A DNA stretch of 64,000 nucleotides from an uncultured Eubacteriales bacterium (GCA_934466515.1 CAKSLH010000003.1:228472-292471); one strand, 5' to 3'. Numbered from the stretch's first letter, positions 6,125 to 62,810 are shown. Program-made: numbers and translations. The notes: generated from the sequence alone by a model not told the origin.

Positions 6125-6310
6125 TAAATATTAACCTCCAATATAAAAAACGGGTATTTACCGGCTTTTTAGAACTATCTGACCGGACGGTGACCGTATT
6201 TTCCACCGGATAAAAATTTTAACAGTGTGATATAAAGCTCGCCATAGCTTTTAACACATAGTAGAATTTACCAATCTAATTTTATCATTTTATAGGCTTA
6301 CTGTCAAGTC

Positions 6311-9006: not shown

Positions 9007-9090
9007 GCGAGTGTGCTGGAATAGGCAGACAGGCACGTTTGAGGGGCGTGTGTCTTCGACGTATGGGTTCAAGTCCCATCACTCGCACCA
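9007..9090 (+). tRNA. tRNA-Leu (anticodon GAG)
   Basis: Seven-bp acceptor stem GCGAGTG/CACTCGC with encoded CCA, long variable arm, anticodon loop TTGAGGG. Confidence 0.85.
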
Positions 9091-14755: not shown

Positions 14756-15226
14756 ATGAAGCCTGTAGTTATTTATTATTCATATTCGGGAAATACAAAA
14801 AGTATAGCCGAAAAATTTAAAGAAAGCCTTGATTGCGATATTTTTGAAATCGAAACCGTAACACCGTATACCGGTGATTATAACGCAGTCGTCGATCAGG
14901 GCAAGGAAGAGGTTGAGAGCGCCTTTATGCCGGAAATTAAACCGCTTGCGGTCGATTTAAGCAAATATGATACCGTAATTTTGGGTATGCCCGTCTGGTG
15001 GTATACCTATGCGCCGGCAGTAAAAACCTTTCTTAACAGTTTTGACCTTTCCGGCAAAACGCTCTATCCTTTTGCTACAAACGGCGGCTGGCTCGGACAT
15101 ACCTTTAAGGATTTAAAAAAGGAATGTAAAGCTGATGTCAAGGACGGGCTCAATATCCGTTTTAACGGCAAAAATTCAAGAACAAACGAAAAAGAAATTG
15201 AAGCTTATATAAACTCAATCACATAA
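14756..15226 (+). CDS. flavodoxin
   Basis: MKPVVIYYSYSGNTKSIAEKF N-terminus. 156 aa. Starts 3 nt after the upstream stop, so likely co-operonic. Confidence 0.8.
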   Translation: MKPVVIYYSYSGNTKSIAEKFKESLDCDIFEIETVTPYTGDYNAVVDQGKEEVESAFMPEIKPLAVDLSKYDTVILGMPVWWYTYAPAVKTFLNSFDLSGKTLYPFATNGGWLGHTFKDLKKECKADVKDGLNIRFNGKNSRTNEKEIEAYINSIT

Positions 15227-15850: not shown

Positions 15851-17242
15851 TTATAAGATACCAACCGAAAAGAAGAAAGAAATAAAGCATGGACCGGCAT
15901 AAAGTAAAAATGCGAGCCAAAGTCTCAGTCTTAAAAGCCAGACATTATATTCTCCGTCATCATAGCTTAAATCTTCTAAAGCAAACTTCGGATGTTTAAA
16001 TACGAAGAATGAAAGAAGAACAACAAATAAAACTGCAAGCATCATATTTTTGCCGGGATTGGGATAAAATTCACATGCAAAACGGCTTATTGCATTGCCG
16101 CCGAATATTTTACCGAGAATTCCGTACCTCATAGTCTGGCTGTCAACGTTTCCTGTCCAGTGGGTTAAAACAACGGCATAAAACGCATAGGTATAAAGGC
16201 AGTCGAGCCACAGGAATTTTTTGGTGTTTTTGTTGAAAGAAGCGCTTATTACCCAAAACGGCGCACCGAATAAAAGCCACTGGGGATGCCATGTCATAAG
16301 CGCAAACTGTGCAAAGCAAATTCCGCAGCTAAGATAAAATCCCCATTTGATCAGGTCCTGAGTATCCTTAGGTTTTACAAAATAAGCCCAGATAACTATA
16401 AACATAACAAGAATCTGGAAATAGCTTACCGACCCGAGAATTGTAGTAAAATCTTCTTGAGAAACATAGGTTAAAGCTCCGAAACCGAAAACTCCGTCTC
16501 TGAAACCTTTTGAGGGATAAAAGCAGGCTATTTCTATAATAAGAAGCCACAAGGAACATAATCCGTATTTAGCAATGTCAATTACGCGTTTTTCTTTTAA
16601 GAGCAAAAATACAAGGAATATAAGAATAGCATAGTATTTAAATGTAATTGCCACGCCGAAAGATATACAAAAAAGCCATTTATCAAATTTTTTATTTCTG
16701 AAGAAAAAATAAAGACCTAAAACCATGAAAAACACAGTAAATATATCATACTGAGAAAATATAAACTGATTGAAAAACGCAACAGGAAGCGTCACAAAAG
16801 AAGCCGCGCATATTTTACTTTTATTTTTAGACATTCCGATTATAACTGCGAGTTTATAAATAAACAATGCGGTTATAAAGAAAAAGCAAGTTGGCAGAAG
16901 CTTATACCACATATTATAAATAAAATGTGAGGTCATCAAGGTTTCAGGTGCTGCAAAACCTAAAATTTTAAGCGGCAGCAGCCAAACGGCGAAAAACAAA
17001 AATGTTGTAGGAAGATAAGTCGCTCCGTTGTCTCCCGTCCATTTTTGCAAAACATCATAGTAATTAAAAAAATTGCTGTTATAAAACTGCCATGCGCGGT
17101 TTCCGGTGACTAAAATATCACCCTGCATAAATACAAGATAGCAAAATACAGCGATTATTCCGAAAATAATATAATCGGCAATATAAATTTTGTTATCAGC
17201 TCTTTTTAATGCTGCAAAAAGCTTATTATCTTTCATTTTCAA
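15851..17242 (-). CDS. polytopic membrane protein, possible GT-C type glycosyltransferase
   Basis: 463 aa with more than 10 predicted TM helices and a conserved Asp-containing N-terminal loop. No recognisable soluble domain. Confidence 0.4.
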   Translation of the reverse strand: MKMKDNKLFAALKRADNKIYIADYIIFGIIAVFCYLVFMQGDILVTGNRAWQFYNSNFFNYYDVLQKWTGDNGATYLPTTFLFFAVWLLPLKILGFAAPETLMTSHFIYNMWYKLLPTCFFFITALFIYKLAVIIGMSKNKSKICAASFVTLPVAFFNQFIFSQYDIFTVFFMVLGLYFFFRNKKFDKWLFCISFGVAITFKYYAILIFLVFLLLKEKRVIDIAKYGLCSLWLLIIEIACFYPSKGFRDGVFGFGALTYVSQEDFTTILGSVSYFQILVMFIVIWAYFVKPKDTQDLIKWGFYLSCGICFAQFALMTWHPQWLLFGAPFWVISASFNKNTKKFLWLDCLYTYAFYAVVLTHWTGNVDSQTMRYGILGKIFGGNAISRFACEFYPNPGKNMMLAVLFVVLLSFFVFKHPKFALEDLSYDDGEYNVWLLRLRLWLAFLLYAGPCFISFFFSVGIL

Positions 17243-23032: not shown

Positions 23033-24403
23033 ATGGAACGCAGAGAGGTTTTAAAATACTTTAAATTATATGAAAATTATATGAATTCCCGTGTAAACGA
23101 GGGTATTGAGAAGTACCGAAAAGGCGGATTTAAAATCAAAGTCCTTGATAAACACGGTAAGCCTGTCAGCGCAAAGATAACCGCAGAGCTTAAAAACCAT
23201 GCTTTTAATTTCGGAGCTAATATTTTTATGCTTGACACTCTAAGAGATTGGGCAAATGAGGATCCCGTAAAATATAAGGGCTGGCCGTCTTTGCCTGATT
23301 ATAAGGAAAAAAACGAAAAATATAAAGAGTATTTTAAAAAGCTTTTTAATTTTGCAACCCTTCCTTTTTATTGGGCGGATAACGAGCCTGAAAAGGGTAA
23401 ATACCGCTTTTATGAGGATGAACCTCATATTCACAGGAGACCTCCGATAAGCGGCTGCTTAAAATTCTGCAGGGAAAACAATATCCGCACCAAGGCTCAT
23501 TGCCTTAATTATGACGGCTGGGATTGCAAATGGGTAAAGCAGGCAGAGACCGCAGAAGAAGTAAAGAATTATGTTGAAGAAAGAATGAGGATCTGCGCGG
23601 AAAATTTTGCAAAGGATATAAAGGGCTGGGAGGTTACTAATGAAACCTTGGTTTTATATCCTCATCCGGACGGTGCAACAAAGTTCTTTTTCGAGCCGGA
23701 TTTTGTTAGCTGGTCATTTAAGACTGCAAGAAAATATTTCCCCGATAATAAGCTTATAATAAACGATAATCATGAAACCGTCTGGGAATACTTCCTTTAT
23801 AAAAGAAGCAATTATTATCTGCAGATTAAAGATGAACTTAATAACGGTACACCGATAGATATAATAGGAATGCAGAATCATTTCTTCTATAAGCGCGAGG
23901 ATGAAATGAAAATGGCGGAAAAGTTCTATAATCCTAAATTTATTTATGATGTATTAGATACCTATGCTGACTTTAATCTCCCCATTCAGCTTACGGAAAT
24001 AACGATTCCCTCTTATTCTAACGACCCCGAGGATGAAGAAATTCAGGCGCAAATACTTAAAAACCTTTATTCAATATGGTTTTCACATAAGAATATGGAA
24101 TCTATTGTTTATTGGAATATGGTTGAGGGATATTTAGGCCCTGTGCTTGATATGACACAGGGAGAGAATTATTATTACGGCGGTTTTGTAAGAAATGATT
24201 TCTCCTTGAAGCCCGCGTATGAAACGCTTTATAATCTTATTCACAAACAGTGGCATACTAAGGAATCAGTAACCGGAAACGAGCTTGATTTTAGAGGCTT
24301 TTACGGTAATTATGATATAAAAATTGAATTCGGCGGAAATGTTACAGAATTAAGCGCCGATTTCTTAAAAGACTGCGAAAATGAGATAACGGTAACAGTC
24401 TGA
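23033..24403 (+). CDS. glycoside hydrolase family 10-like protein (xylanase-like, no signal peptide)
   Basis: GH10-type pattern (NFATLPFYWADNEP...; WEVTNET; LTEITIP catalytic regions). 456 aa, cytoplasmic. Confidence 0.55.
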   Translation: MERREVLKYFKLYENYMNSRVNEGIEKYRKGGFKIKVLDKHGKPVSAKITAELKNHAFNFGANIFMLDTLRDWANEDPVKYKGWPSLPDYKEKNEKYKEYFKKLFNFATLPFYWADNEPEKGKYRFYEDEPHIHRRPPISGCLKFCRENNIRTKAHCLNYDGWDCKWVKQAETAEEVKNYVEERMRICAENFAKDIKGWEVTNETLVLYPHPDGATKFFFEPDFVSWSFKTARKYFPDNKLIINDNHETVWEYFLYKRSNYYLQIKDELNNGTPIDIIGMQNHFFYKREDEMKMAEKFYNPKFIYDVLDTYADFNLPIQLTEITIPSYSNDPEDEEIQAQILKNLYSIWFSHKNMESIVYWNMVEGYLGPVLDMTQGENYYYGGFVRNDFSLKPAYETLYNLIHKQWHTKESVTGNELDFRGFYGNYDIKIEFGGNVTELSADFLKDCENEITVTV

Positions 24404-35986: not shown

Positions 35987-36072
35987 GCCGGTGTGTCGGA
36001 ATGGCAGACGAGACAGACTCAAAATCTGTTGTCAGCAATGGCGTGTGGGTTCAAGTCCCACCACCGGCACCA
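35987..36072 (+). tRNA. tRNA-Leu (anticodon CAA)
   Basis: Acceptor stem GCCGGTG/CACCGGC with encoded CCA, anticodon loop CTCAAAA, long variable arm. Confidence 0.85.
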
Positions 36073-36075
36073 CAT

Positions 36076-36116
36076 ATCGACAGGACTTAAGCTTTTATGT
36101 CTTGTCGATTTTTGTT
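36076..36116 (+). terminator. intrinsic terminator after tRNA-Leu(CAA)
   Basis: atcgacaggac...gtcttgtcgat followed by a T-run. Confidence 0.7.
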
Positions 36117-36161
36117 AAATGAAGTATTTTTCGGCGAATAAAGAATAAGGTTGTGAAATTT

Positions 36162-36938
36162 ATGAAGGTTGTAATTCTCGCAGGCGGATTCGGCACAAGA
36201 ATTTCGGAGGAATCCGTTTATAAGCCCAAGCCGCTTATAGAAATCGGCGGAATGCCTATTCTTTGGCATATTATGAAAGGCTATTCTTATTACGGGTATA
36301 ATGACTTCATTATCTGCGCAGGATATAAACAGCATGTTATAAAGGAATGGTTTGCAAACTATTTCATTCATACAAGCGATGTCACTTTTGATTTTACAAA
36401 GGGCAACGAGGTGATTATCCATGAAAACCATGCCGAGCCGTGGAAGGTAACGGTTGTTGATACGGGTCTTAATACAATGACCGGGGGAAGAATCAAAAGG
36501 ATACAGCCTTATGTCGGAGATGAAACTTTTATGATGACCTACGGCGACGGAGTCTGCGATGTGGATATAGATAAGCTTGTAGAATTTCATAAAGCAAACA
36601 ATAAAATCGCAACCTTAACGGCCGTCGTTCAAAAGCAACAAAAAGGAATTCTTGATATAATGGAAAACGGAGCTGTTAAAAGCTTCCGCGAAAAGCAGGT
36701 TAATGACGGCGCCGCTATAAACGCGGGCTTTATGGTTCTTGAACCGCAGATTTTCGATTATCTTGAGGGCGACGATACCGTTTTTGAGACAACACCGCTT
36801 GAAAAACTCGTAAGTGAGGGTCAGCTGATGAGCTACCGCCATACGGGCTTTTGGCAGTGCATGGATTCAATGCGTGAAAAGGAGCTTCTTGAAACACTTC
36901 TTAAAAACGGTAAGGCTCCGTGGAAAAAGTGGGAGTGA
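36162..36938 (+). CDS. rfbF: glucose-1-phosphate cytidylyltransferase
   Basis: MKVVILAGGFGTRISEES...KPLIEIGG nucleotidyltransferase signature matching RfbF/DdhA. Confidence 0.88.
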   Translation: MKVVILAGGFGTRISEESVYKPKPLIEIGGMPILWHIMKGYSYYGYNDFIICAGYKQHVIKEWFANYFIHTSDVTFDFTKGNEVIIHENHAEPWKVTVVDTGLNTMTGGRIKRIQPYVGDETFMMTYGDGVCDVDIDKLVEFHKANNKIATLTAVVQKQQKGILDIMENGAVKSFREKQVNDGAAINAGFMVLEPQIFDYLEGDDTVFETTPLEKLVSEGQLMSYRHTGFWQCMDSMREKELLETLLKNGKAPWKKWE

Positions 36939-36944
36939 AAATAT

Positions 36945-37994
36945 ATGAATCTTGATTTTTATAAAGGAAAGAGAGTTTTCATTACAGGGCATACAGGTTT
37001 TAAGGGCTCTTGGCTCTGCAGAATTTTAATTTCGGCAGGCGCAAAGGTAATAGGCTTTTCTTTAGAGCCGCCCACATCTCCAAACCTCTTTGATATCGCA
37101 GATATTAAGCCGCACATCAATTCTGTTATCGGAGACATCAGGGATTTTGAGGCTCTTAAAAAAGCCTATGACGAAGCAGAGCCTGAAATAGTATTTCACC
37201 TTGCGGCACAGCCGATCGTCAGAGACAGCTATAAAGAACCTGCTTATACATACGAAACCAATGTCATGGGAACGGTCAATCTTCTTGAGTGTGTGAGGCT
37301 GAGCGCCAATCCGCCTAAATCAGTGCTTAATGTTACAACCGATAAGGTCTATAAAAATAATGAATGGGCTTGGGGCTACAGGGAAAACGAGCCGCTTGAC
37401 GGGTTTGATCCTTATTCAAATTCAAAGTCCTGCTCGGAGCTTGTAACTCATAGCTATAAGGTATCTTTTCTTGATGGAATGGGCATCGCTGTTTCAACCG
37501 CAAGAGCCGGAAATGTTATAGGCGGAGGAGATTTCGCAAATGACAGAATTATTCCCGACTGCGTAAGAGCGGCAAAGGAAAAAGCAATAATAACTGTAAG
37601 AAATCCTTATTCAACAAGACCCTATCAGCATGTTTTAGAGCCGCTTGCGGCATATCTGATGATTGCGGCAAAGCAGTATGAGGATATAAAATATGCCGAT
37701 TATTATAATGTCGGTCCCGATGAGTGCGACTGTGTTACTACAGGCGACCTTGTAACCCTCTTCTGTGAAAAATTCGGAGAGGGAATGAAATGGGAAAATA
37801 AATCCGTAGGCGGTCCGCATGAAGCAAACTTCCTTAAGCTTGATTGCTCAAAGCTTAAATCGGTATTTTCATGGAAACCGCGCTGGCATATTGACGAGTG
37901 CATGGAAATGACCTGCAGATTCAGTAAGATTTGGCTTGAAAACGGAAATATACCTGCGGAAATGGATAAGGAAATCAAAGAATTCTTTAAATAA
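36945..37994 (+). CDS. rfbG: CDP-glucose 4,6-dehydratase
   Basis: VFITGHTGFKGSWL extended-SDR signature of RfbG/DdhB. Confidence 0.88.
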   Translation: MNLDFYKGKRVFITGHTGFKGSWLCRILISAGAKVIGFSLEPPTSPNLFDIADIKPHINSVIGDIRDFEALKKAYDEAEPEIVFHLAAQPIVRDSYKEPAYTYETNVMGTVNLLECVRLSANPPKSVLNVTTDKVYKNNEWAWGYRENEPLDGFDPYSNSKSCSELVTHSYKVSFLDGMGIAVSTARAGNVIGGGDFANDRIIPDCVRAAKEKAIITVRNPYSTRPYQHVLEPLAAYLMIAAKQYEDIKYADYYNVGPDECDCVTTGDLVTLFCEKFGEGMKWENKSVGGPHEANFLKLDCSKLKSVFSWKPRWHIDECMEMTCRFSKIWLENGNIPAEMDKEIKEFFK

Positions 37995-38010
37995 AAAAAG
38001 GAGAAAGAAA

Positions 38011-39357
38011 ATGGCAAATTGGAATAGCGAGGAACAGGCAAGAGAACAGATAAAACAAATGGTTGCCGAGTATTATAAGGACTTTAAGACCAAAAAAGAA
38101 CCCTTTAAAGAGGGCGACAGAATAACCTATGCTGCACGTGTTTTTGATGAAAAGGAAATGTGCGCTCTTACCGACGCAACGCTTGATTTCTGGCTTACAA
38201 CCGGCAGATTTTCCGATGAGTTCGAGAAAAAATTTGCCGAATGGATAGGCGTTAAATATGCCCATCTTGTAAACAGCGGTTCTTCCGCAAACCTTATTGC
38301 TTTTTCCGTTCTAACCGCTCCGGAGCTTGGCGACAGAGCGATAAAGCGCGGAGACGAGGTTATAACCGTTGCCTGCGGCTTCCCCACCACCGTCACCCCG
38401 ATTTTGCAGTACGGCGCGGTTCCGGTTTTTGTCGATGTTACAATTCCTCAGTATAATATTGATTCTTCAATGCTTGAAAAGGCATTAAGCGATAAAACAA
38501 AGGCGGTTATGATTGCTCATACCTTGGGCAATCCGTTTGACCTTAAAACCGTCAAGGAATTCTGCGATAAGCATAATCTTTGGCTTGTCGAGGATAACTG
38601 CGACGCTTTGGGAAGTACCTACACTATTGACGGAGTTACTAAATTTACAGGAACTTGGGGAGACATCGGAACAAGCAGCTTTTATCCGCCTCATCACATG
38701 ACAATGGGCGAGGGCGGCTGTGTTTATACGAATAATCCTAAGCTTAACCGCCTCATTTTAAGCTACAGAGACTGGGGAAGAGACTGCATCTGTCCTTCGG
38801 GAAGAGATAACTTCTGCGGTCATAGGTATGACGGTCAGTACGGCGAGCTTCCTAAGGGCTATGACCATAAATATGTTTACAGCCATTTCGGATACAATCT
38901 TAAGGTTACCGATATGCAGGCGGCTGTCGGCTGCGAACAGCTTAAGAAATTCCCCGAATTTGTTAAGCGCAGAAAGCATAACTGGAGCAGACTTAAAAAT
39001 GCTTTAATGCCCGTCTCGGATAAGCTTATTCTTCCCGTTCCTGCCGAGAACAGCGACCCGAGCTGGTTCGGTTTCCTTATCACCTTAAAGGATGACAGCG
39101 GTCTTGACAGAGAAAAGGTTGTAAGATATATTGAAAGCAAGAATGTTCAGACAAGAATGCTTTTTTCGGGCAACCTTATAAAGCACCCCTGCTTTGACAG
39201 CATAAGAGGAACCGATGCTTACCGCGTTGCAGGCGAGCTTACCGCAACCGATAAAATCATGAAAAACACCTTCTGGGTAGGAGTTTACCCCGGAATGACC
39301 GATGAAATGATAGATTATATGGCAAAAACCATAATCGAGGCTGTAAATAATGGGTAA
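38011..39357 (+). CDS. rfbH: CDP-6-deoxy-L-threo-D-glycero-4-hexulose 3-dehydrase (E1, RfbH/DdhC)
   Basis: DegT-fold protein with His replacing the PLP-Lys (FYPPHHMTMGEGG) and a C-terminal Cys cluster (CICPSGRDNFCGH), typical of PMP/[2Fe-2S] E1. Confidence 0.8.
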   Translation: MANWNSEEQAREQIKQMVAEYYKDFKTKKEPFKEGDRITYAARVFDEKEMCALTDATLDFWLTTGRFSDEFEKKFAEWIGVKYAHLVNSGSSANLIAFSVLTAPELGDRAIKRGDEVITVACGFPTTVTPILQYGAVPVFVDVTIPQYNIDSSMLEKALSDKTKAVMIAHTLGNPFDLKTVKEFCDKHNLWLVEDNCDALGSTYTIDGVTKFTGTWGDIGTSSFYPPHHMTMGEGGCVYTNNPKLNRLILSYRDWGRDCICPSGRDNFCGHRYDGQYGELPKGYDHKYVYSHFGYNLKVTDMQAAVGCEQLKKFPEFVKRRKHNWSRLKNALMPVSDKLILPVPAENSDPSWFGFLITLKDDSGLDREKVVRYIESKNVQTRMLFSGNLIKHPCFDSIRGTDAYRVAGELTATDKIMKNTFWVGVYPGMTDEMIDYMAKTIIEAVNNG

Positions 39358-39862
39358 ATTAAAGGGCCTGCTGAGTAATAAAAAGCTTGCTCCGATTATC
39401 CAGTTTATAAAATTCGGACTTGTCGGCGTTTCAAATACCGCTATTTCTTACGGAATAGAAATGCTTTGCTTCTATGTGCTGTTTAAAAACGCCGAGTTTG
39501 GTTTAACCGTAAAGCTTCTTTCGCTTTTAAGCGTTAAAGCCTCGGTTAAATCGGTCAGAATTGTTTATACCTCAATACTTGCTTTTATAATAAGCGTTAC
39601 CAATTCTTATTATTGGAACAACCGATTTGTTTTTAAATCGGGGAATAAAAGGTTTAAGGACCATTTAAAGGCTTACCTTAAAACCGTTGTGTGCTACGGA
39701 ATAACGGGACTTGTTTTGTCACCGATTATTAAAGTGCTTTTAAGCAATGCGGGTGTGCCGTATTATATCGCAAGCTTAGGCTCGCTTGTTATAACAATTC
39801 CGCTTAATTTTGTGCTTAATAAATTCTGGGCATTTAATAATAAAAAGGAAGAAAATAAATGA
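39350..39862 (+). CDS. GtrA family membrane protein
   Basis: FIKFGLVGVSNTAISYGIEM signature. Four TM helices. Overlaps neighbours on both sides, so it is operonic. Confidence 0.75.
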   Translation: MGKLKGLLSNKKLAPIIQFIKFGLVGVSNTAISYGIEMLCFYVLFKNAEFGLTVKLLSLLSVKASVKSVRIVYTSILAFIISVTNSYYWNNRFVFKSGNKRFKDHLKAYLKTVVCYGITGLVLSPIIKVLLSNAGVPYYIASLGSLVITIPLNFVLNKFWAFNNKKEENK

Positions 39863-41700
39863 AAATAAGAATTGCAGACTATGTTGCGGATTTTTTGGCT
39901 GATAAGGGCGTTACCGATTGCTTCACCGTCGTCGGCGGAGGAGCAATGCATTTAAACGACGCTTTCGGCCACCATAAAAAAATCCACTGTACTTATAATC
40001 ATCATGAGCAGGCAAGCGCTATTGCAGCGGAAAGCTATGCGAGACTTAATAATAAAATCGCGGCACTTTGCGTAACAACAGGCCCAGGTGGAACAAATGC
40101 CATAACAGGCGTTGTCGGCGGATGGCTCGATTCAATTCCGATGTTTGTTATAAGCGGTCAGGTAAGATATGATACTACCGCAAGATATGCCATGCGGTTT
40201 ACCGACGGTTTGCCTCTTCGCGCAGTAGGCGATCAGGAATTCGATATCACAAAATCGGTTTCTTCGATGTGTAAGTATGCCGAAATGCTTGAAAAGCCCG
40301 AGGATATAAGATATATGCTTGAAAAGGCTTGGCACCTTGCAAATACCGGAAGAAAAGGTCCCGTTTGGCTTGATATTCCCGTAAATTATCAGGGCTGCTT
40401 TATTGAAACCGATAATCTTTCGGGCTATGACCCTGAAGAGGACGATAAATTGCTGCCGCCTAAGGTTAGCGATGAAACCGTAGATTTGATTTTGGAAAAA
40501 ATCAAGAAGGCGCAAAGACCTGTTATTTATGCCGGCGGCGGAATAAGACTTTCGGGAGGATATGAAGCCTTTAAGGCGGCTGTTGAAAAGCTCGGCGTTC
40601 CGGTTGTAACATATTGGAACAGCGTCGATGTCATTGAGGACGATAATCCCCTTTATTGCGGAAGAGGCGGAAACATGGGCGACAGACCCGGAAACTTCGC
40701 CGTTCAGAATTCCGATCTTTTGCTTGCAATAGGCACGAGACTGAGCTTAAGACAGGTCGGATATAGCTTTAAAACATGGGCGAGAGCCGCAGAGGTTATA
40801 ATGGTTGATGTGGATAGGGCGGAGTTTAAAAAGCCGACTATTCATGTAGATATGCCGCTCCTTGCGGATGCAAAGGATTTCCTTGAAGCTATAGTCCGCA
40901 AAACCGAGGATTTAAAAGCGCCCGTTTCGGATAAAGAGTCTTGGCGCGAAAAATGCCTTTATTGGAAAAAAACATATCCTGCAACTTTACCCAGACACTA
41001 TGAGGAAAACGGCAAAACCGCAAATGTTTTTGCTTTTATTAAGCACCTTTCCGATTCCTTACCCGCAGGCTCGCTTACAGCCGTAAGCAACGGCGCATGC
41101 TGTGTTGTCGGACATCAGAACTGGACTATAAAGAAGGACACTAGATTTATTATAAACAGTGCTATTGCCAGCATGGGCTACGGACTTCCTGCGGCAATCG
41201 GTCTTTGCATTGCGGGCGGTAAAAAGGATACGGTCTGCCTTGAGGGCGACGGAAGCATAATGATGAATTTGCAGGAGCTTCAGACTATTGTCACCAATAA
41301 ATTGCCTGTAAAGGTATTTTTAATAAACAATCAGGGCTATCACAGTATCAGAATAACCCAAAATAATCTGTTTAAGGACCATTGCAAGGTTGGAATAGGT
41401 CCCGAAAGCGGAGATCTTTCATTCCCCGATTTTAAGAAAATTGCGGGTGCTTTCGGTATGCCGTATTTCAGCGCTAAGAGTAATGAAGAAATGAAAAAAG
41501 CGGTCGAAGAGACTCTAAATACAGAGGGCTTTGCTTTCTGCGAAATATTTACGGATACCGTTCAGGTTTGGGAGCCTAAGAGCAGTACAAAGCGCTTGCC
41601 CGACGGAACACTTGTAAGTCCTCCTCTTGAGGACCTCGCTCCGTTCCTGCCGAGAGAAGAGCTTGAACAGCAGATGTTTATACCGCTTGTGGAAGAATAA
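39859..41700 (+). CDS. thiamine-pyrophosphate (TPP) dependent acetolactate-synthase-like enzyme (YerE-like candidate)
   Basis: Three-domain ALS/IlvB architecture. N-terminal TPP-pyrimidine domain and C-terminal GDG...NN TPP-binding motif (EGDGSIMMNLQELQT). Confidence 0.7.
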   Translation: MKIRIADYVADFLADKGVTDCFTVVGGGAMHLNDAFGHHKKIHCTYNHHEQASAIAAESYARLNNKIAALCVTTGPGGTNAITGVVGGWLDSIPMFVISGQVRYDTTARYAMRFTDGLPLRAVGDQEFDITKSVSSMCKYAEMLEKPEDIRYMLEKAWHLANTGRKGPVWLDIPVNYQGCFIETDNLSGYDPEEDDKLLPPKVSDETVDLILEKIKKAQRPVIYAGGGIRLSGGYEAFKAAVEKLGVPVVTYWNSVDVIEDDNPLYCGRGGNMGDRPGNFAVQNSDLLLAIGTRLSLRQVGYSFKTWARAAEVIMVDVDRAEFKKPTIHVDMPLLADAKDFLEAIVRKTEDLKAPVSDKESWREKCLYWKKTYPATLPRHYEENGKTANVFAFIKHLSDSLPAGSLTAVSNGACCVVGHQNWTIKKDTRFIINSAIASMGYGLPAAIGLCIAGGKKDTVCLEGDGSIMMNLQELQTIVTNKLPVKVFLINNQGYHSIRITQNNLFKDHCKVGIGPESGDLSFPDFKKIAGAFGMPYFSAKSNEEMKKAVEETLNTEGFAFCEIFTDTVQVWEPKSSTKRLPDGTLVSPPLEDLAPFLPREELEQQMFIPLVEE

Positions 41701-41716
41701 TTTTCGGGGTCAGAAA

Positions 41717-42772
41717 ATGAATAAAATTATACGTGAAGATTTAGAATATATATATAATTTTAAACCGAGCATGTGGGAAAAATTCCGTAATAAGACAGTT
41801 TTGGTAACAGGGGCTGCCGGAATGCTTCCGTCTTATATGGTCTTTATGCTTATTTATCTCAATGAAGTTGACAGCAATTTTAATGTCAGGATCGTTGCTT
41901 TGGCAAGAAGCAAAGAAAAGCTTGAGAAAAGATTCGGAGAATATATAAATAAGGATTATTTTGAATGTTACATTGCTGACGTTTGTTCGAAAATATCGTA
42001 TGAGGGACAGATTAATTATATTATTCACGGCGCAAGTCCGGCGAGTTCTCAATATTACAGTACCAATCCTGTCGGGGTTTTAATGCCTAATGTTTTGGGA
42101 ACTTATTATACTTTGGAATTGGCTCGCAAAAAGAATACAGACGGATATCTTTATTTCAGCAGCGGCGAGGTATACGGTAAAATTTCAAAAGAGCAGATAT
42201 TCGAAGAGGATGACGGGTATATGAATCCTGCTGATGTAAGAAGCTGCTACGGCGAAGGCAAGCGTGTCGGCGAGACTATGTGTAAATGCTATTCTCATCA
42301 GTATAATATTTCAACCTGCATGGTTCGTCCCTCACACACATACGGACCTACGATGGACATAAATAATGACAACCGTGTTTTTGCTGAATTTGTCGGAAAT
42401 ATTGTCAGAAATGAAAATATAGCCATAAAAAGCGACGGTTTAGCATCAAGAAACTTTTGTTATATAGCTGATGCGACCTTAGCATATTTTCTCATTCTTT
42501 TATCAGGCGGTATGGGTGAAGCCTATAATGTAGCGAATGAAAACGGAAAAAGTACTATACGCAATTTAGCTGAAACCTTGTGTGATTTATTTCCTGAAAA
42601 GAATTTAAGTGTTTCTTACGAAAAGCATGACAAGGATTATCTTGAAAATGCTCATAAGATTCATCCTGTTCAAAATACGGATAAGCTAAAAAAATTGGGA
42701 TGGGCTCCGCATTTCGGAATAAAAGATGGATTTAAAAGAACTGTTGAAAGCTTTTGTATAGGGGAAAATTAA
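41717..42772 (+). CDS. NAD-dependent epimerase/dehydratase family (extended SDR) protein
   Basis: VLVTGAAGMLPS Rossmann motif and YxxxK (YGEGK). Confidence 0.75.
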   Translation: MNKIIREDLEYIYNFKPSMWEKFRNKTVLVTGAAGMLPSYMVFMLIYLNEVDSNFNVRIVALARSKEKLEKRFGEYINKDYFECYIADVCSKISYEGQINYIIHGASPASSQYYSTNPVGVLMPNVLGTYYTLELARKKNTDGYLYFSSGEVYGKISKEQIFEEDDGYMNPADVRSCYGEGKRVGETMCKCYSHQYNISTCMVRPSHTYGPTMDINNDNRVFAEFVGNIVRNENIAIKSDGLASRNFCYIADATLAYFLILLSGGMGEAYNVANENGKSTIRNLAETLCDLFPEKNLSVSYEKHDKDYLENAHKIHPVQNTDKLKKLGWAPHFGIKDGFKRTVESFCIGEN

Positions 42773-43711
42773 ATGAAAAAAATCAGTGTTGTTGTTCCGA
42801 CTTATAATGAATCAGGCAATATTCTGCCGATGAGCGATAAGATAAAAGAAATATTTGAAAAAGATCTTCCGCAGTATGATTATGAATTGATTTTTATTGA
42901 TAATTTTTCAAAGGATAATACCCGTGCGGAAATAACAGCGGCTTGTCAGCAAAATAAAAAAGTCAAGGCTATTTTTAACGCTAAAAACTTCGGATGGATG
43001 AGATCGCCTTTTTACGGCATTCAACAGTCAACCGGAGATTGCACCGTTCTTATGTGTGCGGATTTTCAGGAACCGCCTGAAATGATTCCGAAATTTGTTA
43101 AAGAATGGGAAAACGGATACAGAATAGTTGTAGGCATTAAAACTACAAGTAAAGAAAGTAAATTAAAATATTGGATTAGAAGCTGCTATTATAAAATGAT
43201 GATAAAAATGTCCGATGTTGAGCAAATCGAGCATTTTACCGGTTTCGGACTTTATGACAAGAGCTTTGTTGAGGTTATGCGTGAACTCAAAGATCCTATG
43301 CCTTATATTAGAGGAGTGGTTTCAGAGCTTGGATTTGAACGCAAGGAAATTCCTTACGCTCAACAGGAAAGAAAGAACGGAAAAAGCAAGGGCAGCTTTT
43401 ATGCGCTTTATGATACAGCTATGTTAGGTATAACTTCTTATACAAAGTACGGCTTAAGGGCTGCGACGATGTTAGGTTTTGTTCTTTCTGCCCTCAGCAT
43501 GCTCGTTGCGGTAATATATTTGGTTTTGAAACTCATTTATTGGGAAAAGTTTGCTATGGGAACAGCTCCGATTTTAATAGGTGTTTTCCTTATGGGCTCA
43601 TTACAGCTCTTTTTCATAGGTCTCTTAGGTGAATATATTCTTAATATAAACACACGTGTAATGAACAGACCTCTTGTTGTGGAAGAAAAAAGAATAAATT
43701 TTGATGAATAA
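42773..43711 (+). CDS. GT2 polyprenyl-phosphate glycosyltransferase (GtrB/DPM1-like)
   Basis: ISVVVPTYNESGNI...FIDNFSKDNT GT2 signature and two C-terminal TM helices. Confidence 0.8.
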   Translation: MKKISVVVPTYNESGNILPMSDKIKEIFEKDLPQYDYELIFIDNFSKDNTRAEITAACQQNKKVKAIFNAKNFGWMRSPFYGIQQSTGDCTVLMCADFQEPPEMIPKFVKEWENGYRIVVGIKTTSKESKLKYWIRSCYYKMMIKMSDVEQIEHFTGFGLYDKSFVEVMRELKDPMPYIRGVVSELGFERKEIPYAQQERKNGKSKGSFYALYDTAMLGITSYTKYGLRAATMLGFVLSALSMLVAVIYLVLKLIYWEKFAMGTAPILIGVFLMGSLQLFFIGLLGEYILNINTRVMNRPLVVEEKRINFDE

Positions 43712-43741
43712 AAAAATCGACCCTGAAAAAGGGTCGATTTT

Positions 43742-44554
43742 TTAGAGCTTTAATATTCTTTTTGCATTTTCGCTTAAAATCATTTTCTGTTCATTTTCGC
43801 TTAAGTTCAGATTTAAAAATAATTTTAATTCGTTTTCGGGGTCGTTCATCGGGTAGTCTGTTCCGAAAAGCACTCTGTCGGCACCGTATCTTAAAATAAT
43901 CTCTTTTGCCTTTTTAGGTGTAAGAAAAGCGAGACTTGATGAGCAGTCAACATAGAAATTGTTAAGCTTATTTGAGGAGCAGATTTCTTTGCTTGCTTCG
44001 TCCCAAATCGTATATCCGCCGAAATGCGCTCCGATAACAGTTAGCTTTGAATAAATCTCAAGGATAGGAATAAGCCGGTTCGGGTTTGAAAAATCATATC
44101 TTTTGTCGCCCGTGTGCATTAAAATCGGCAGTCCGTATTCCTCGCAAAGCTCGTAAATTTTAAGGCACCTGTAATCATCAATTTTAAAGCCCTGAATATC
44201 GGGGTGGAGCTTTATTCCCTTTAAGCCCAATTCTTTTAAATGCCTTAGATCTCCCCTGATATCGCCCGAATCGGGATGAAGAGTTCCGAACCCTGTAAGA
44301 ATATCAGGGTGCAATGAAACCTCTCTTGCTATAAACTCATTTATGCTTTTAACCTGATGCGGAGTTGTCGCGACCGACTGAACAATACAGCGGTCAATTC
44401 CGCATTTTTCACATTTTTGAATAAGCTGATTAACCGTGCCGGAGCAAGCAGGCTTGCCGCCGTAAAAAGCGCCTGTTGCGTTGGCGGCTTTTTCGGCAAG
44501 CATATCAGGATAAATGTGACAGTGCGCGTCGATAACGGTTTTCTGATTTACCAT
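43742..44554 (-). CDS. amidohydrolase family (TIM-barrel metal-dependent hydrolase)
   Basis: N-terminal DAHCHIYP motif. 270 aa. Confidence 0.7.
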   Translation of the reverse strand: MVNQKTVIDAHCHIYPDMLAEKAANATGAFYGGKPACSGTVNQLIQKCEKCGIDRCIVQSVATTPHQVKSINEFIAREVSLHPDILTGFGTLHPDSGDIRGDLRHLKELGLKGIKLHPDIQGFKIDDYRCLKIYELCEEYGLPILMHTGDKRYDFSNPNRLIPILEIYSKLTVIGAHFGGYTIWDEASKEICSSNKLNNFYVDCSSSLAFLTPKKAKEIILRYGADRVLFGTDYPMNDPENELKLFLNLNLSENEQKMILSENAKRILKL

Positions 44555-45618
44555 TATTTTATCGGATAGGTCCAGCCGTATTTATCTTCGGTTCTGCCCC
44601 ACTGTAATCCTGTAAGGACATCATAAAGGTGCTTTGTAACCTCGCCGATTTTTCCTTCGCTTACTGTAAACTTCTCGTCATTATAACAAAGCTCGCCGAT
44701 AGGTGAAACAACAGCCGCCGTACCCGTGCCCCAAGCCTCTTCTAATTTTCCGCTTCTTGCGGCGTCCATAAGCTCGTCAACGGATAAAAGCCTTTCTTCG
44801 ACCGTATATCCCTCGTCCTTTAAAATCTCAATGCAGGATTTTCTTGTAATTCCGGGGAGAATTGAGCCTGTAAGTGCAGGGGTGACTATTTTGCCGTCGA
44901 TTTTAAACATTACGTTCATCGCGCCTACCTCTTCGATGTACTTTCTTTCAACACCGTCAAGCCATAAAACCTGAGAATATCCCTTTTTCTCCGCAAGCAT
45001 TCCCGCGCGGTTGCTTGCGGCATAGTTTCCGCCGCATTTTGCCTCTCCGGTTCCGCCTCTTACTGCTCTTACATCCTTTGATTCAATCATTATTTTAACG
45101 GGATTGAGTCCCTCTGCATAGTAGCTTCCTACGGGCGACGCTATAATAACAAAGGTTGCGTTTTTAACCGCATGAACACCTAAGCTTTCGTCATTTCCGA
45201 ACATAAACGGGCGGAGATAAAGCGAGGTTCCTTTCTCGCTCGGAGTCCAGTCCTTGTCGACTGAAACAAATGTTGTAAGCGCTTTTAAACCGTCTTCTTC
45301 GGGAATCTGCGGAAGACACATTCTTTCTGCCGAGCGGTTAAGCCTTTTAATGTTTTCAAGCGGTCTGAAAAGCTGAACGCTTCCGTCCGCCTTGCGGTAA
45401 GCCTTAAGACCCTCAAAAATCTCGACGCCGTAATGGAAAACGGTTGACGCAGGGTGTACAGAGAGGTTTTCAAAGGGAACTATTCTGGCATTGTGCCAGC
45501 CGAGGCCGTTTGAATATTCCATAATAAACATATGGTCTGTAAAATATTTGCCGAAGCCTAAATTTTTTGAATCCGGCTTTTGTTTAGGCGAAGATGTTTT
45601 AACAATTTTGATTTCCAT
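44554..45618 (-). CDS. ilvE: branched-chain amino acid aminotransferase
   Basis: Class IV aminotransferase, 354 aa, GFGKYFTDHMF N-terminus. Confidence 0.88.
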   Translation of the reverse strand: MEIKIVKTSSPKQKPDSKNLGFGKYFTDHMFIMEYSNGLGWHNARIVPFENLSVHPASTVFHYGVEIFEGLKAYRKADGSVQLFRPLENIKRLNRSAERMCLPQIPEEDGLKALTTFVSVDKDWTPSEKGTSLYLRPFMFGNDESLGVHAVKNATFVIIASPVGSYYAEGLNPVKIMIESKDVRAVRGGTGEAKCGGNYAASNRAGMLAEKKGYSQVLWLDGVERKYIEEVGAMNVMFKIDGKIVTPALTGSILPGITRKSCIEILKDEGYTVEERLLSVDELMDAARSGKLEEAWGTGTAAVVSPIGELCYNDEKFTVSEGKIGEVTKHLYDVLTGLQWGRTEDKYGWTYPIK

Positions 45619-56114: not shown

Positions 56115-57686
56115 ATGAAAATGATATTAAAAAGTATAAAAAAATTAAAAAGCTTAAGTGCAGTGGTTTTAATATCAACTATTTTGGTATTTCAGATAAC
56201 AGGCGGAACTGTTGTTTCTGCGGCTTCATATGAAGGCAAAGGAACAAAATCCAGTCCGTATCTTGTAACAAATGCCGAACAGCTTGACGGCATGAGGAAC
56301 AAGCTTTCAGCTCATTATAAGTTGGCAAACACTATAGATATGTCGTCGGTTGCGAATTTTACACCTATCGGAGATAACAGTAAGGAATTTACCGGCAGCT
56401 TTACCTGCGATAAGGGAAGCGACGGAAAGCCTCTTTATATTATAAAGAATTTAACTGTTAACCCTCAGTTGACTGGATGCACAAAGGCAGAAAAATTTTC
56501 AGGCTATAAGGGCGATGATAAACCGTCCGGATGGGAAATAGGACTTTTCGGCAGCACAAAGGGAGCAACACTTGAAAATATTGTCGTACTGAATGCAAAT
56601 GTTACAAGTCCCGTTGAAGGCCTTTCTTCTATGAACAGCGACTGGTCCGGAAATGCAGGTACAGCTCAGCAGGGAACGGGAATTTTAATCGGTTTTGCAG
56701 TCAATACAACTGTTAAGGGCTGTGGAAGCAGCGGAACAGTAACCTCTAAGTCCAACAATACCGGCGGACTAATAGGAGCTTTAACCGGCAAATCTACTCT
56801 CAGCAGAAGCTATTCCTACGCAACCGTTACTTCGACGGGTACTTGGAGTGCAGGCGGACTTTTGGGTTCAACTGAAACACAATGGGGAAAATATGTAGCC
56901 AATGTTAAGATAAGCGAGTGCTTTTATAACGGAACTTTTTCCGGCGGTGTTACCGGTGCAGGAGCATTTTGCGGGCCTGCTCCTTCTAAGGATAAAAGTA
57001 CCGGCGACAGTGTGACAGTTGAAAACTGTTGGGCAGGAGGAACTGTAAAAACGGCTTCATCGGGATGCTTTTTCGGAACCGATAATCTTAATACTATAGA
57101 TGATGTTGATTTTAATTATGTTAAGAATTGTTACACTCTTTGCAAAATTGAGGGAAGAACAAAAGCTCAAACCAATAAAAAGGTTACGAACAACTGCTAT
57201 ATAACCGATGAACCGGGAGGTCTTGAAATCGGCTTTGCGGCTGCAAGTATGGCAGAAATAAATGCGGCATATAAAAATATTTCCGTTTGGACTGTTACCG
57301 ACGGCGCTTATCCTCAGCTTAAAAATATTAATGCTGTAAACGATGCTTCGGCTTATACCCCCGGAGCGGCTCAGCAAAGCAATTCCGATAATCAGGATTC
57401 TAAGACCGATTCAGATACGGCGGCTGCCGATAATACCGACGATACGCAATCAGATACAAAAAAGTCTGCAGATCAAACCGGAGTAAATGTCGTTGTCAAC
57501 GATAAGCTTACAGCAATGGGAACAGCTGAGCTGGTTTTAATAATCGTTCTGGTTATTGCTTTTGTTGCTCTTTCGGCATTCGGCGTCTGGACGATAATAC
57601 TTATAAGAAAATTCCTTTCTGCAAATGCGGTTAAAGAAATAAAAAACGAAGACGCGGATAAAGTGGATGTTAATTCCGATAATTAA
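56115..57686 (+). CDS. GLUG-motif cell-surface protein with C-terminal TM anchor
   Basis: Signal peptide. Repeated GLUG-type motifs (IGLFGSTKG, GGLIGALTG, GGLLGSTET). Acidic Ser/Thr/Asp-rich stalk and a C-terminal TM helix. Confidence 0.6.
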   Translation: MKMILKSIKKLKSLSAVVLISTILVFQITGGTVVSAASYEGKGTKSSPYLVTNAEQLDGMRNKLSAHYKLANTIDMSSVANFTPIGDNSKEFTGSFTCDKGSDGKPLYIIKNLTVNPQLTGCTKAEKFSGYKGDDKPSGWEIGLFGSTKGATLENIVVLNANVTSPVEGLSSMNSDWSGNAGTAQQGTGILIGFAVNTTVKGCGSSGTVTSKSNNTGGLIGALTGKSTLSRSYSYATVTSTGTWSAGGLLGSTETQWGKYVANVKISECFYNGTFSGGVTGAGAFCGPAPSKDKSTGDSVTVENCWAGGTVKTASSGCFFGTDNLNTIDDVDFNYVKNCYTLCKIEGRTKAQTNKKVTNNCYITDEPGGLEIGFAAASMAEINAAYKNISVWTVTDGAYPQLKNINAVNDASAYTPGAAQQSNSDNQDSKTDSDTAAADNTDDTQSDTKKSADQTGVNVVVNDKLTAMGTAELVLIIVLVIAFVALSAFGVWTIILIRKFLSANAVKEIKNEDADKVDVNSDN

Positions 57687-61157: not shown

Positions 61158-62810
61158 TTGATTAAGAAATTATCAAAACTGTTTTCTCTTGTCTTTTCCG
61201 TGCTTTTCTTGCTTACAGTAATGTATATTCCTGTTTCGGCACTTAACGAAAATGAAGCGGTATTTTCCCTTTCCGGCACAAGCGGCGTTAAAAAGGGAGA
61301 TACCGTAGTCGTTGAAATTTCGGTAAATGCCGGAAGCGGCACTAAGATTAATGGTATGGACTTTTCTCTGCTTTTTGAAAGCGAGTATCTTTCTTATATA
61401 AGCGGCTCTGCCAAGTTAAATATGAATACGGATAATTCACCTACCGTGAGTGTTCTTAATAACAGATTAAATCTTGCTTGGGACAGCGGAACCTCTGTTA
61501 CGCTTGCAAGCGGGAAATTTGCTTCATTTAGCTTCAGAGTTGAAAATATAAGCAAGGAGCTTGAGGTTAAGCTTAATTTCGGTTCGTGCTATGCGATAAG
61601 CATAGTTTCTGGACGGGTAGTATATAAGGATATAGCAGTAAGCGTATCAAACACCGCTCTTATAAAAGGCGATAATGAAGACGCGGCAGTAAATGCCGTA
61701 ATAGCGGCAATTGACGGAATTGGCGAGGTAACCGCCGGCAGTAAATCTCAGCTGGATCTGATTTATAATGCTTATAAAAGCCTGTCTCAGGCTCAAAAGC
61801 AAAAAGTTACTAATTATGATAAGCTTGCAGAAGCTATAAGAAAGTGCGATGAGTTGATAAAGCAGGAAGAAAACGACCCTGTTGCAAAGGAAATCAAGGA
61901 TTATAAGATAAAGTACAGCGAGGCTTTAAATCTTCGCGTCAGTACGGTAGGGCCTAACGATGTCGAAAAGCTTACCGAGGCTCTTGAAGCTATGAAAAAG
62001 CTTTCTTCACAGGCACAGGTTGAGCTTTTAAGAACAAAATATCTTCTTGACTCTGTTTTAGCAAAGGCAAAGGAGCTTAAAAGCGAAGAAGACAGAAAAA
62101 ACAATGAAGAAAAACTCAGAGCCGAGGCAGAGGCTTTGGCAAATGAATACCGAAACGGTATTTATAAATGGGTGTTTGCTTTAACGACGGATACCGTCAA
62201 AATCGTTGACGGAGAGGGCGTTAATCTCGCTTATGAAGAGCTGTTGAATATTGAGATAATAAATGATATTGCTTTCAAGCTTTTGGCGCCTGAAAAGAAA
62301 CTTCTGGAATCACTTAAAAAGAGAATAGACGAGTTGAAGCTTATACAGAATCCCGAGCTTTCGGCAGCAATTGCCAAGGCAAACGATTTCAGGGAAAAAT
62401 TCGGATTTTTGTTCACTCTTAAGGATGATGAAGTTACATACGACGAAAAAATAGATATTTATATTGCCTATGAGCTTCTCAATTCTTATGATGAGGATGT
62501 AAAGGAATTGCTTTCCTCCGAGCTTGAAAGACTTGAGCAATTGATGTCTATTGCAGGCGGCCTTGAGCCTGACGAGGTCAAAGAGGTTGAAACCGTTGTG
62601 AATGAAATAACTAAAATAAAAACAGTTCACGACACCTCCGGCTTAGGAGAGTTAAAGGTTGATTTGAGCTCGAGAAAAATGAGCCTTACAGCTTATATTC
62701 TTATGGGTCTGTGTGTGCTTTCGGCAATTCTCCTCGGCATTCTGAGATACGCTTACTATAAATTGAGAAAGCGTTATTATCCGGAACAGTTTATGAAAGG
62801 GGGGATATGA
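61158..62810 (+). CDS. membrane-anchored cohesin-domain protein (scaffoldin-like)
   Basis: Signal peptide. Cohesin-like beta-sandwich (about aa 35-165: KKGDTVVVEISVNAGSGTKINGMDFSLLFESEYLSYISGS). Long helical region and a C-terminal TM helix. TTG start with RBS aaaggag. Confidence 0.55.
   Translation: MIKKLSKLFSLVFSVLFLLTVMYIPVSALNENEAVFSLSGTSGVKKGDTVVVEISVNAGSGTKINGMDFSLLFESEYLSYISGSAKLNMNTDNSPTVSVLNNRLNLAWDSGTSVTLASGKFASFSFRVENISKELEVKLNFGSCYAISIVSGRVVYKDIAVSVSNTALIKGDNEDAAVNAVIAAIDGIGEVTAGSKSQLDLIYNAYKSLSQAQKQKVTNYDKLAEAIRKCDELIKQEENDPVAKEIKDYKIKYSEALNLRVSTVGPNDVEKLTEALEAMKKLSSQAQVELLRTKYLLDSVLAKAKELKSEEDRKNNEEKLRAEAEALANEYRNGIYKWVFALTTDTVKIVDGEGVNLAYEELLNIEIINDIAFKLLAPEKKLLESLKKRIDELKLIQNPELSAAIAKANDFREKFGFLFTLKDDEVTYDEKIDIYIAYELLNSYDEDVKELLSSELERLEQLMSIAGGLEPDEVKEVETVVNEITKIKTVHDTSGLGELKVDLSSRKMSLTAYILMGLCVLSAILLGILRYAYYKLRKRYYPEQFMKGGI

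Follow-up and report, generated by a model that had tools for sequence, protein, structure and literature searches.

An operon of an uncultured Eubacteriales bacterium predicted to build a CDP-activated branched 3,6-dideoxyhexose for lipid-carrier export

In Yersinia pseudotuberculosis O:6/O:12, the branched sugar yersiniose A is made by the products of ddhDABC together with yerE and yerF: a thiamine diphosphate (ThDP)-dependent enzyme resembling acetohydroxyacid synthase (AHAS) branches CDP-4-keto-3,6-dideoxyglucose at C4, and a reductase then acts on the branch (PMC9306805, PMC5399914). A ThDP enzyme and a reductase also lie beside CDP-4-keto-3,6-dideoxyglucose genes in the clusters for erwiniose (ErwE/ErwF), caryophyllose (MMAR_2332) and gastriose (MygE) (PMC9306805). 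Here we describe a seven-gene operon with the same chemical logic, located at positions 36076–43711 (+ strand) of a 64,000-nucleotide stretch of DNA, hereafter the window, from an uncultured Eubacteriales bacterium (GCA_934466515.1, CAKSLH010000003.1:228472-292471). We hold, with moderate confidence, that this operon builds a CDP-activated branched 3,6-dideoxyhexose, loads it onto undecaprenyl phosphate (Und-P) and puts it on the cell surface. The initial annotation had proposed a yersiniose-like pathway and had taken YerE/YerF to be the only described route of this kind, which the erwiniose, caryophyllose and gastriose enzymes contradict (PMC9306805, PMC12247030). The operon encodes homologues of DdhA, DdhB and DdhC, but departs from the Yersinia system in that ddhD, encoding the reductase E3, is missing, and in that the ThDP enzyme falls in the clade of JanthE rather than in that of YerE and PpYerE (with the structure 5AHK as proxy). 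The predicted export also differs: in Yersinia a Leloir glycosyltransferase adds the sugar to the O unit and Wzx flips it, whereas an Und-P-monosaccharide route is predicted for the window, whose host is a Gram-positive-type gut anaerobe.

For single components of the operon, other described systems stand closer. JanthE of Janthinobacterium sp. HH01 (8RPH/8RPI/8RPJ) is the closest characterised relative of the ThDP enzyme and catalyses aldehyde-ketone cross-coupling to tertiary alcohols; it has been described as ‘YerE-like’, with ketones as the acceptors to which it joins 2-oxo acids (PMC12188165, PMC12247030). JanthE carries the ThDP motif CDG where the window enzyme has the canonical GDG, and the gene context in the window supplies a candidate acceptor. 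The GtrA/GtrB/GtrC, ArnC/ArnT and CsbB/GtcA/YfhO systems are assembled from parts that have counterparts here: a family 2 glycosyltransferase (GT2) with a C-terminal transmembrane (TM) hairpin, a GtrA-family protein and, as a candidate, a GT-C transferase. Compared with these three-component systems, the donor in the window is predicted to be a CDP-activated branched dideoxyhexose instead of a UDP-sugar, and the sugar biosynthesis genes sit in the same operon. In addition, the cassette-linked GT2 subfamily has a non-acidic residue throughout where the DXD motif should begin with Asp, and the candidate GT-C protein comes from an unannotated GT87-like family and is unlinked to the operon in this genome.

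The first three genes encode the enzymes that would supply the keto sugar. RfbF/DdhA, a glucose-1-phosphate cytidylyltransferase (36162–36938, 258 aa), scores 372.8 bits against the TIGR02623 equivalog (cut-off 300), and RfbG/DdhB, a CDP-glucose 4,6-dehydratase (36945–37994, 349 aa), scores 432.3 bits against the TIGR02622 equivalog (cut-off 278). RfbH/DdhC (E1), the pyridoxamine 5′-phosphate (PMP)/[2Fe-2S] CDP-4-keto-6-deoxyglucose 3-dehydrase (38011–39357, 448 aa), reaches 728.9 bits with NF011936 (cut-off 423) and aligns end to end with E1 of Y. pseudotuberculosis (3BCX, 548 bits). His220 (SFYPPHHMTMGEGG) and Cys193, Cys251, Cys253 and Cys261 are conserved between the two. In E1, we take His220 to replace the lysine that binds pyridoxal 5′-phosphate, and the four cysteines, in the motif C-X57-C-X1-C-X7-C, to be the [2Fe-2S] ligands. 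Because these five residues are conserved with 3BCX, RfbH reads as a true E1 and not as a ColD-type dehydratase or an aminotransferase. On strong family evidence, RfbF would convert glucose 1-phosphate and CTP to CDP-glucose, RfbG would convert this to CDP-4-keto-6-deoxyglucose, and RfbH, with PMP and its [2Fe-2S] cluster, would remove the 3-hydroxyl to give CDP-4-keto-3,6-dideoxyglucose.

The fifth gene encodes the ThDP-dependent carboligase (39859–41700, 613 aa), in which all three TPP domains are present (PF02776, PF00205 and PF02775; TPP_enzyme_N/M/C). Its best solved relative is JanthE (8RPH, 439 bits, E = 3e-130, residues 2–607), to which the motifs HHEQAS and EGDGSIMMNLQEL...INNQGY, with the catalytic Glu and the GDG...NN ThDP-binding residues, align. 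The alignment takes in the C-terminal extension VSPPLEDL (…VSPPLEDLAPFLPREELEQQMF), a stretch left uncovered when AHAS or 5AHK is aligned. Residues Y297 and K567 of JanthE, flagged as catalytic hot spots (PMC12188165), are conserved in the window enzyme. The AHAS chains in the PDB score only ~180–217 bits (plant AHAS 217) and 5AHK scores 229 bits. All 54 NCBIfam matches lie far below their cut-offs, including the best acetolactate synthase model (319 vs 738 bits), the sulfoacetaldehyde acetyltransferase model (185 vs 620 bits) and the glyoxylate-carboligase models. A biosynthetic AHAS was considered and rejected on these scores, and neither ilvN nor ilvC lies in the gene context.

At least 150 clusters at 50% identity scored 372–696 bits over their full length in a scan of 1.84 billion representatives, against ~215 for AHAS, and because of this gap the JanthE-type clade is, judged by sequence, large and distinct. 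A neighbour-joining tree (its loci being 80 from the genome scan described below plus L007, L009 and L011) placed the window enzyme, JanthE and the enzymes of 84 loci in one clade, with 5AHK and AHAS outside at distances from the window enzyme of 0.77 and 0.75. By the model scores and the tree, the enzyme does not group with genuine acetolactate synthases, and the sulfoacetaldehyde acetyltransferase model is likewise below cut-off; a grouping with either was among the outcomes that would have spoken against the initial annotation. Throughout, 5AHK stands proxy for the Yersinia enzyme YpYerE; we take it to be PpYerE, 59% identical to YpYerE, for which the source is reportedly Hampel et al. 2018. 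This proxy matches E. coli AHAS I (250 bits) and plant AHAS (243 bits) better than it matches JanthE (224 bits). With 5AHK scoring no better than AHAS against the window enzyme and falling outside its clade, orthology to YerE is not supported; the window enzyme appears to be ‘YerE-like’ in function and context only. The JanthE-type clade also contains fusion members with an extra N- or C-terminal domain of ~200–260 aa: P0143, P0145 and P0166 (~850 aa), P0156 (790 aa), and P0162 and P0244 (810–856 aa).

The evidence that ties this clade to the dideoxy sugar comes from its genomic neighbourhoods. One scan of 185,579 species genomes with the clade alignment yielded at least 80 loci; its patterns were tailored to the JanthE-type clade, and the matches listed include none from Yersinia or Pectobacterium atrosepticum. 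The loci come from Clostridia, Bacteroidales, Campylobacter concisus, Selenomonas artemidis, Treponema, Verrucomicrobia, Acidobacteria, Myxococcaceae, candidate phyla and others. Cultured strains with the cassette are represented by Selenomonas artemidis DSM 19719 (L031), Gabonibacter massiliensis GM7 (L077), Campylobacter concisus Lasto28.99 (L025), Lachnospiraceae bacterium AM48-27BH (L066) and Clostridium sp. AT4 (L091). We then mapped homologues of the window proteins onto the listed loci, of which 52 have at least 5 kb on both sides. RfbH (at least 45% identity) or RfbF plus RfbG lies within 10 kb in 35 of these 52, and a GT2 at least 40% identical to that of the window is present in 27. 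The recurrent order is RfbF-RfbG-RfbH-(GtrA)-TPP-SDR-GT2 (SDR, short-chain dehydrogenase/reductase), often followed by a polytopic membrane protein of 570–940 aa. This recurrent linkage, for which the initial annotation had suggested a synteny comparison and which extends across many phyla, is best read as the strongest evidence that the E1 product is the clade's natural acceptor and that a lipid carrier is the sugar's destination. Taken with the gene identities and a TPP enzyme that is not an acetolactate synthase, it upholds the reading of the product as a CDP-activated, C4-branched 3,6-dideoxyhexose. The ThDP enzyme would decarboxylate a 2-oxo acid and transfer the acyl anion to the C4 ketone, giving a tertiary alcohol with an acyl branch.

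Such a cassette had been thought unusual in a Clostridia-like anaerobe, and here the opposite was found. More than 120 relatives of the TPP enzyme (as 90% clusters) share at least 77% identity with it and come from gut Acutalibacteraceae, Lachnospiraceae and related metagenome-assembled genomes (MAGs), and because of this abundance in gut metagenomes the cassette is common in gut Clostridia. A literature search for the gene combination found no paper describing the GtrA/GT2-linked form of this cassette.

The reductase that would complete the branch is an extended SDR (41717–42772, 351 aa; PF01370, with the motifs VTGAAGM and YGEGK), predicted to be an NADPH-dependent side-chain ketoreductase. 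The solved structure that it matches best is that of HS5.17, a CDP-6-D-glucitol synthase from Campylobacter jejuni HS:5 (8V4G/8V4H) and a simple NADPH-dependent ketoreductase that acts on a ketone distal to the CDP handle. The match to 8V4G includes the unusual extra N-terminal helix. Also conserved are Tyr167 and Lys171 of the YxxxK motif, Arg164 and Arg233, which bind the pyrophosphate, Glu140, and Arg208 at the NADP 2′-phosphate. The similarity amounts to only 137 bits, however; the substrate of HS5.17 is open-chain CDP-6-fructose, and the residues contacting cytosine and polyol partly differ. The SDR fits a predicted CDP-sugar ketoreductase in a YerF-like role, and is set beside YerF by role only. 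With NADPH, it would reduce the branch ketone to leave a CDP-bound, yersiniose-like 4-C-(1-hydroxyalkyl)-3,6-dideoxyhexose. Although the TPP enzymes of L007 and L009 are 86% and 79% identical to that of the window, their SDRs are only 19–20% identical to it, and an SDR of the window type (at least 40% identity) occurs in 4 of the 80 loci listed. Which of yersiniose A and B is formed in Yersinia depends on YerF (PMC5399914), so by analogy the swapped reductases may mean different stereochemistry.

It is also conceivable that the operon makes an unbranched 3,6-dideoxyhexose of the paratose or abequose type, with the SDR as a C4 reductase and the TPP enzyme engaged in an unrelated carboligation. 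The SDR family gives no regiochemistry from sequence, and the natural substrate of JanthE is unknown, both of which leave room for such a product. We nevertheless rate it as very unlikely: within the operon the TPP gene starts before gtrA has ended, linkage of the clade to rfbF/G/H recurs across phyla as described above, the known CDP-paratose and CDP-abequose synthases are not the best matches of the SDR, and each cassette has exactly one SDR besides RfbG, adjoining the TPP gene.

For the branched product, the simplest donor would be pyruvate, because the cassette encodes no aldolase. A tblastn search of the window found neither an HMGL-like nor an HpcH/HpaI aldolase, nor a PfkB kinase, which favours a simple donor. 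The clusters of ErwE, MMAR_2332 and MygE, in contrast, have an aldolase for long, hydroxylated 2-oxo-acid donors. Among the 80 loci listed, an HMGL-like aldolase is present in 14 and an HpcH/HpaI aldolase in 12, and some of these loci add a PfkB kinase or a HAD phosphatase. The aldolase region lies beside the TPP gene at 6266–8885 in L093, 5546–8158 in L095, 7688–9292 in L079, 8177–9978 in L030 and 12511–13296 in L025. In L093 and L095, an HMGL-like aldolase and a PfkB kinase follow the TPP gene, with an Acyl_transf_3 gene nearby (directly after the GT2 gene in L093). These aldolases, those of L093, L095, L079 and L030 among them, parallel the ones in the erwiniose and caryophyllose clusters. 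By this analogy, the aldolase cassettes of Clostridia, Bacteroidales, Selenomonas and Campylobacter concisus predict longer, functionalised branches of an erwiniose- or caryophyllose-like kind.

A donor other than pyruvate would keep the same architecture and give a propionyl, butyryl or other acyl branch, so that the product would be a homologue of yersiniose and not a C2-branched sugar. The candidates are a branched-chain 2-oxo acid, 2-oxobutyrate and 2-oxovalerate, with the last two of which JanthE makes more product in vitro than with pyruvate (PMC12247030), and ErwE rejects pyruvate altogether. Moreover, the nearest relatives of the window's SDR-GT2 block are cassettes that have both an HMGL-like aldolase and a PfkB kinase, and in these longer donors are implied. 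On the other side, the window itself has no aldolase or kinase, its TPP gene is closest (86%) to L007-type cassettes that also lack both, and pyruvate is abundant. We therefore regard a non-pyruvate donor as rather unlikely, though it deserves to be kept in view; 2-oxobutyrate or a longer acid could serve in the branching step, and because JanthE prefers C4–C5 donors the side chain may be pyruvate-derived or longer.

The two halves of the operon have different nearest relatives. For RfbF, RfbG, RfbH, GtrA and the TPP enzyme these come from the L007-type cassette (85, 73, 89, 67 and 86% amino acid identity), for the SDR and GT2 from the L093-type cassette (76 and 89%). Judged from these identities, the operon is a mosaic of two cassette types with a switch at ~41700, the TPP/SDR junction. 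Sister strains encode a 317-aa GT2 followed by an Acyl_transf_3 gene or its remnant (182 aa, or 264 + 79 aa; L097 11920–12468, L101 2386–2934, L103 2369–3399). In the window, the GT2 is 312 aa long and Acyl_transf_3 is cleanly absent from 43711–43742; the strains thus differ in what may be an O-acylation step.

The mosaic origin, the lack of E3 in the window and the Acyl_transf_3 remnants of sister strains, deleted here, are what one would expect if the cassette were a decaying, non-functional recombinant of two cassettes that had lost E3 and the acyltransferase. This seems to us highly improbable, as the seven ORFs (open reading frames) are intact, E1, the SDR and the TPP enzyme keep their catalytic residues, and most related cassettes also lack E3. 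The cassette is, besides, kept at the same site in all sampled strains of the species, with identical products on 23 contigs from different samples. In one strain (L002 17326–21278), the place of the rpsI-rplM region, downstream of the DUF2752 gene, is taken by two phage-type integrases together with an HTH gene and a sigma-70 r4 gene; a mobile element is inserted here a few kb from the cassette.

For the export of the sugar, the operon encodes a small membrane protein of the GtrA family (39350–39862, 170 aa; PF04138, 65.3 bits vs cut-off 26.1) and a GT2 of the polyprenyl-phosphate type (42773–43711, 312 aa). The GT2 matches GtrB (5EKE, 146 bits, residues 3–303 vs 27–325, including the C-terminal TM hairpin) and ArnC (107 bits, residues 1–302 vs 7–308) over their full length, as it does DPMS; its sequence shows two hydrophobic helices at the C terminus, and the NCBIfam matches to PgfS and ArnC are below cut-off. 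A GtrA protein with a GtrB-like GT2 points to three-component extracytoplasmic glycosylation by the Und-P-sugar route, and their presence together therefore suggests decoration through a lipid carrier rather than assembly of the O-unit type. The GT2 would move the sugar onto Und-P, and GtrA, presumably acting on the lipid-linked sugar as a flippase or accessory, would aid its crossing of the membrane. At the DXD site (around residues 90–100; 43040–43070), the window GT2 reads C-A-D-F-Q, where GtrB and ArnC read D-A-D-L-Q. The first position is non-acidic (C, A, V, H, L or S) in all 36 cassette-linked GT2s of at least 40% identity among the loci listed, while the Asp is kept in 5 of 8 GT2s from these loci whose identity is below 40% and whose motif is readable. 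The loss of this Asp is possibly an adaptation to a CDP-sugar donor.

Read differently, the same divergence from GtrB and ArnC, together with the lack of a GT-C gene in the operon, could mean that the GT2 is a conventional cytoplasmic glycosyltransferase that passes the sugar straight onto a lipid-linked or wall polymer, with no Und-P-monosaccharide and no GT-C step. We think this unlikely, given the end-to-end likeness to GtrB and ArnC down to the C-terminal TM hairpin, the co-encoded GtrA, and the large polytopic or GT-C genes that follow the GT2 gene in many related loci.

If the sugar does travel on Und-P, a candidate for its final transfer is the 463-aa protein encoded at 15851–17242 (− strand; the start may be the ATG at 17236), a divergent GT87/DUF2029-like protein put forward on synteny elsewhere and on its fold. 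It has no Pfam match of its own, even at E = 10, while many of its 269 detected homologues carry PF09594 (GT87/DUF2029). An unannotated homologue sits immediately upstream of the cassette both in L007 (32% identity, E = 3e-60) and in L009 (27%, E = 2e-38); other homologues come directly after the GT2 gene in the Blautia MAG L046 (35%, itself passing the GT87 cut-off) and after rfbH in L095 (37%). An AlphaFold (AF2) model from a 47-sequence alignment had a pLDDT of 94.9 and a pTM of 0.93, and its first 26 Foldseek matches in the PDB were all GT-C proteins (ArnT, STT3, EmbB, PimE, Pmt4, ALG3 and GPI mannosyltransferase I); the TM-scores to GPI mannosyltransferase I were 0.51 and 0.57. Asp42 in the first loop is invariant. 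On synteny and the model, this protein is probably the final transferase from lipid carrier to extracytoplasmic acceptor, and would attach the sugar to a wall polysaccharide, a teichoic acid or a surface protein.

Several points count against the pathway as proposed. As the pathway is known, E1 depends on the E3 reductase (DdhD/RfbI), encoded in Yersinia within ddhDABC (PMC5399914), and a Pfam search found no Fer2/FAD/NAD reductase (E3, DdhD/RfbI/AscD) among the window ORFs of at least 150 aa. The claim that RfbF, RfbG and E1 by themselves yield CDP-4-keto-3,6-dideoxyglucose must be amended on this account: the removal of the 3-hydroxyl hangs on an electron donor other than a dedicated E3, plausibly ferredoxin or flavodoxin in an anaerobe. 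Because no E3 is encoded in the window, we infer that the electrons would come from a housekeeping ferredoxin or flavodoxin system. Most related cassettes likewise have no E3, and a motif scan (ferredoxin plus RxYS) found nothing E3-like in loci L001–L092. Directly 3′ of rfbH in 5 of the 80 loci listed is a gene for an FNR-like reductase of 224–229 aa with NAD_binding_1 and FAD_binding_8 and without an Fe-S domain (L064 9321–9995, L030 7463–8146, L059 7230–7919, and also L042 and L087). This flavin reductase may be a minimal substitute for E3; it has no tblastn match in the window. A flavodoxin gene lies at 14756–15226 (+ strand), ~600 bp from the GT-C candidate, and could in principle feed E1.

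The remaining counterpoints concern the later steps. The GT-C gene is 19 kb from the operon in this genome and is linked to it by synteny in others. The characterised GtrB, ArnC and DPMS enzymes use UDP- or GDP-sugars, and we know of no precedent for a CDP-sugar donor. The SDR is not conserved among otherwise near-identical cassettes, which makes its exact reaction uncertain. Finally, the YerE proxy 5AHK is no nearer a relative of the TPP enzyme than AHAS is, and the physiological substrates of JanthE are unknown (PMC12188165).

All seven genes of the operon were confirmed on the + strand, directly after a tRNA-Leu(CAA) gene (35987–36072, + strand; ARAGORN, and Rfam RF00005 with 57.4 bits) that forms the upstream boundary, and their identities as rfbF, rfbG, rfbH, gtrA, TPP, SDR and GT2 genes hold in family-model searches, in keeping with the initial annotation. 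Independent gene calls on the 23 metagenomic contigs with an identical TPP protein give the same seven products with the same starts, flanked by SecG and the tRNA on one side and by an amidohydrolase and a class-IV aminotransferase on the other. For rfbF, the ATG at 36162 is backed by 258-aa gene calls on related contigs, and the GTG at 36153 is less likely. The genes had been described as mostly overlapping; two junctions do overlap (rfbH/gtrA by 8 nt and gtrA/TPP by 4 nt), but one abuts (0 nt) and three have spacers of 6–16 nt, and larger overlaps arise only with the longest, TTG-started ORFs. The packing is operon-like and lies between two terminators: a terminator-like hairpin with a U-run 3′ of the tRNA (36077–36114, + strand; −21.6 kcal/mol, z = −3.1) and a bidirectional intrinsic terminator between the GT2 gene and the convergent amidohydrolase gene (43711–43743; 14-bp stem, −20 kcal/mol, z = −7.0). 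A promoter scan of the 89-nt leader before rfbF gave no convincing sigma-70 match, and Rfam at threshold gave no riboswitch or family other than tRNA. The branched-chain aminotransferase and amidohydrolase genes (43742–45618, − strand) were considered as members of the system and rejected, being convergent, past the terminator and not adjacent to the cassette in L007, L009 and L093.

Elsewhere in the window, ARAGORN called a 94-nt tRNA-Ile(AAT) at 2171–2264, which overlaps an ORF at 1507–2238, and a tRNA-Leu(GAG) at 9007–9090; neither has an Rfam tRNA match at the gathering threshold, and the tRNA-Ile(AAT) call is probably a false positive. Three further genes on the + strand encode a 523-aa secreted, C-terminally membrane-anchored protein without Pfam domains (56115–57686), a cohesin-domain protein (61158–62810) and a GH10 xylanase (23033–24403). 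These suggest a fibre-degrading, cellulosome- or amylosome-like lifestyle, and such surface proteins could be acceptors for the sugar.

A broader proposal, which we offer tentatively and with less than even confidence, is that the cassettes form a pan-bacterial decoration system in which a GT2 subfamily that has lost the first Asp uses CDP-sugars, an E3-free E1 draws on ferredoxin or flavodoxin, and a GT87-like family provides the GT-C step; these features of the GT2, the E1 electron supply and the GT-C protein may be without characterised precedent. If true, the proposal would also reveal the physiological acceptor of JanthE-type ThDP enzymes, and the GT-C family would place a branched sugar on the envelope of abundant human-gut Clostridia. 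For the JanthE clade, which biocatalysis groups engineer without a known natural role, the gene context offers a concrete hypothesis of the physiological substrate. A GtrB-like subfamily that may use CDP-sugars would widen the donor range of polyprenyl-phosphate glycosyltransferases. In Salmonella, Yersinia and mycobacteria, dominant antigens are formed by 3,6-dideoxyhexoses and the branched sugars derived from them, and a conserved route to such a sugar in common gut Clostridia predicts that the human microbiota bears an unrecognised class of surface epitopes, which may also be phage receptors.

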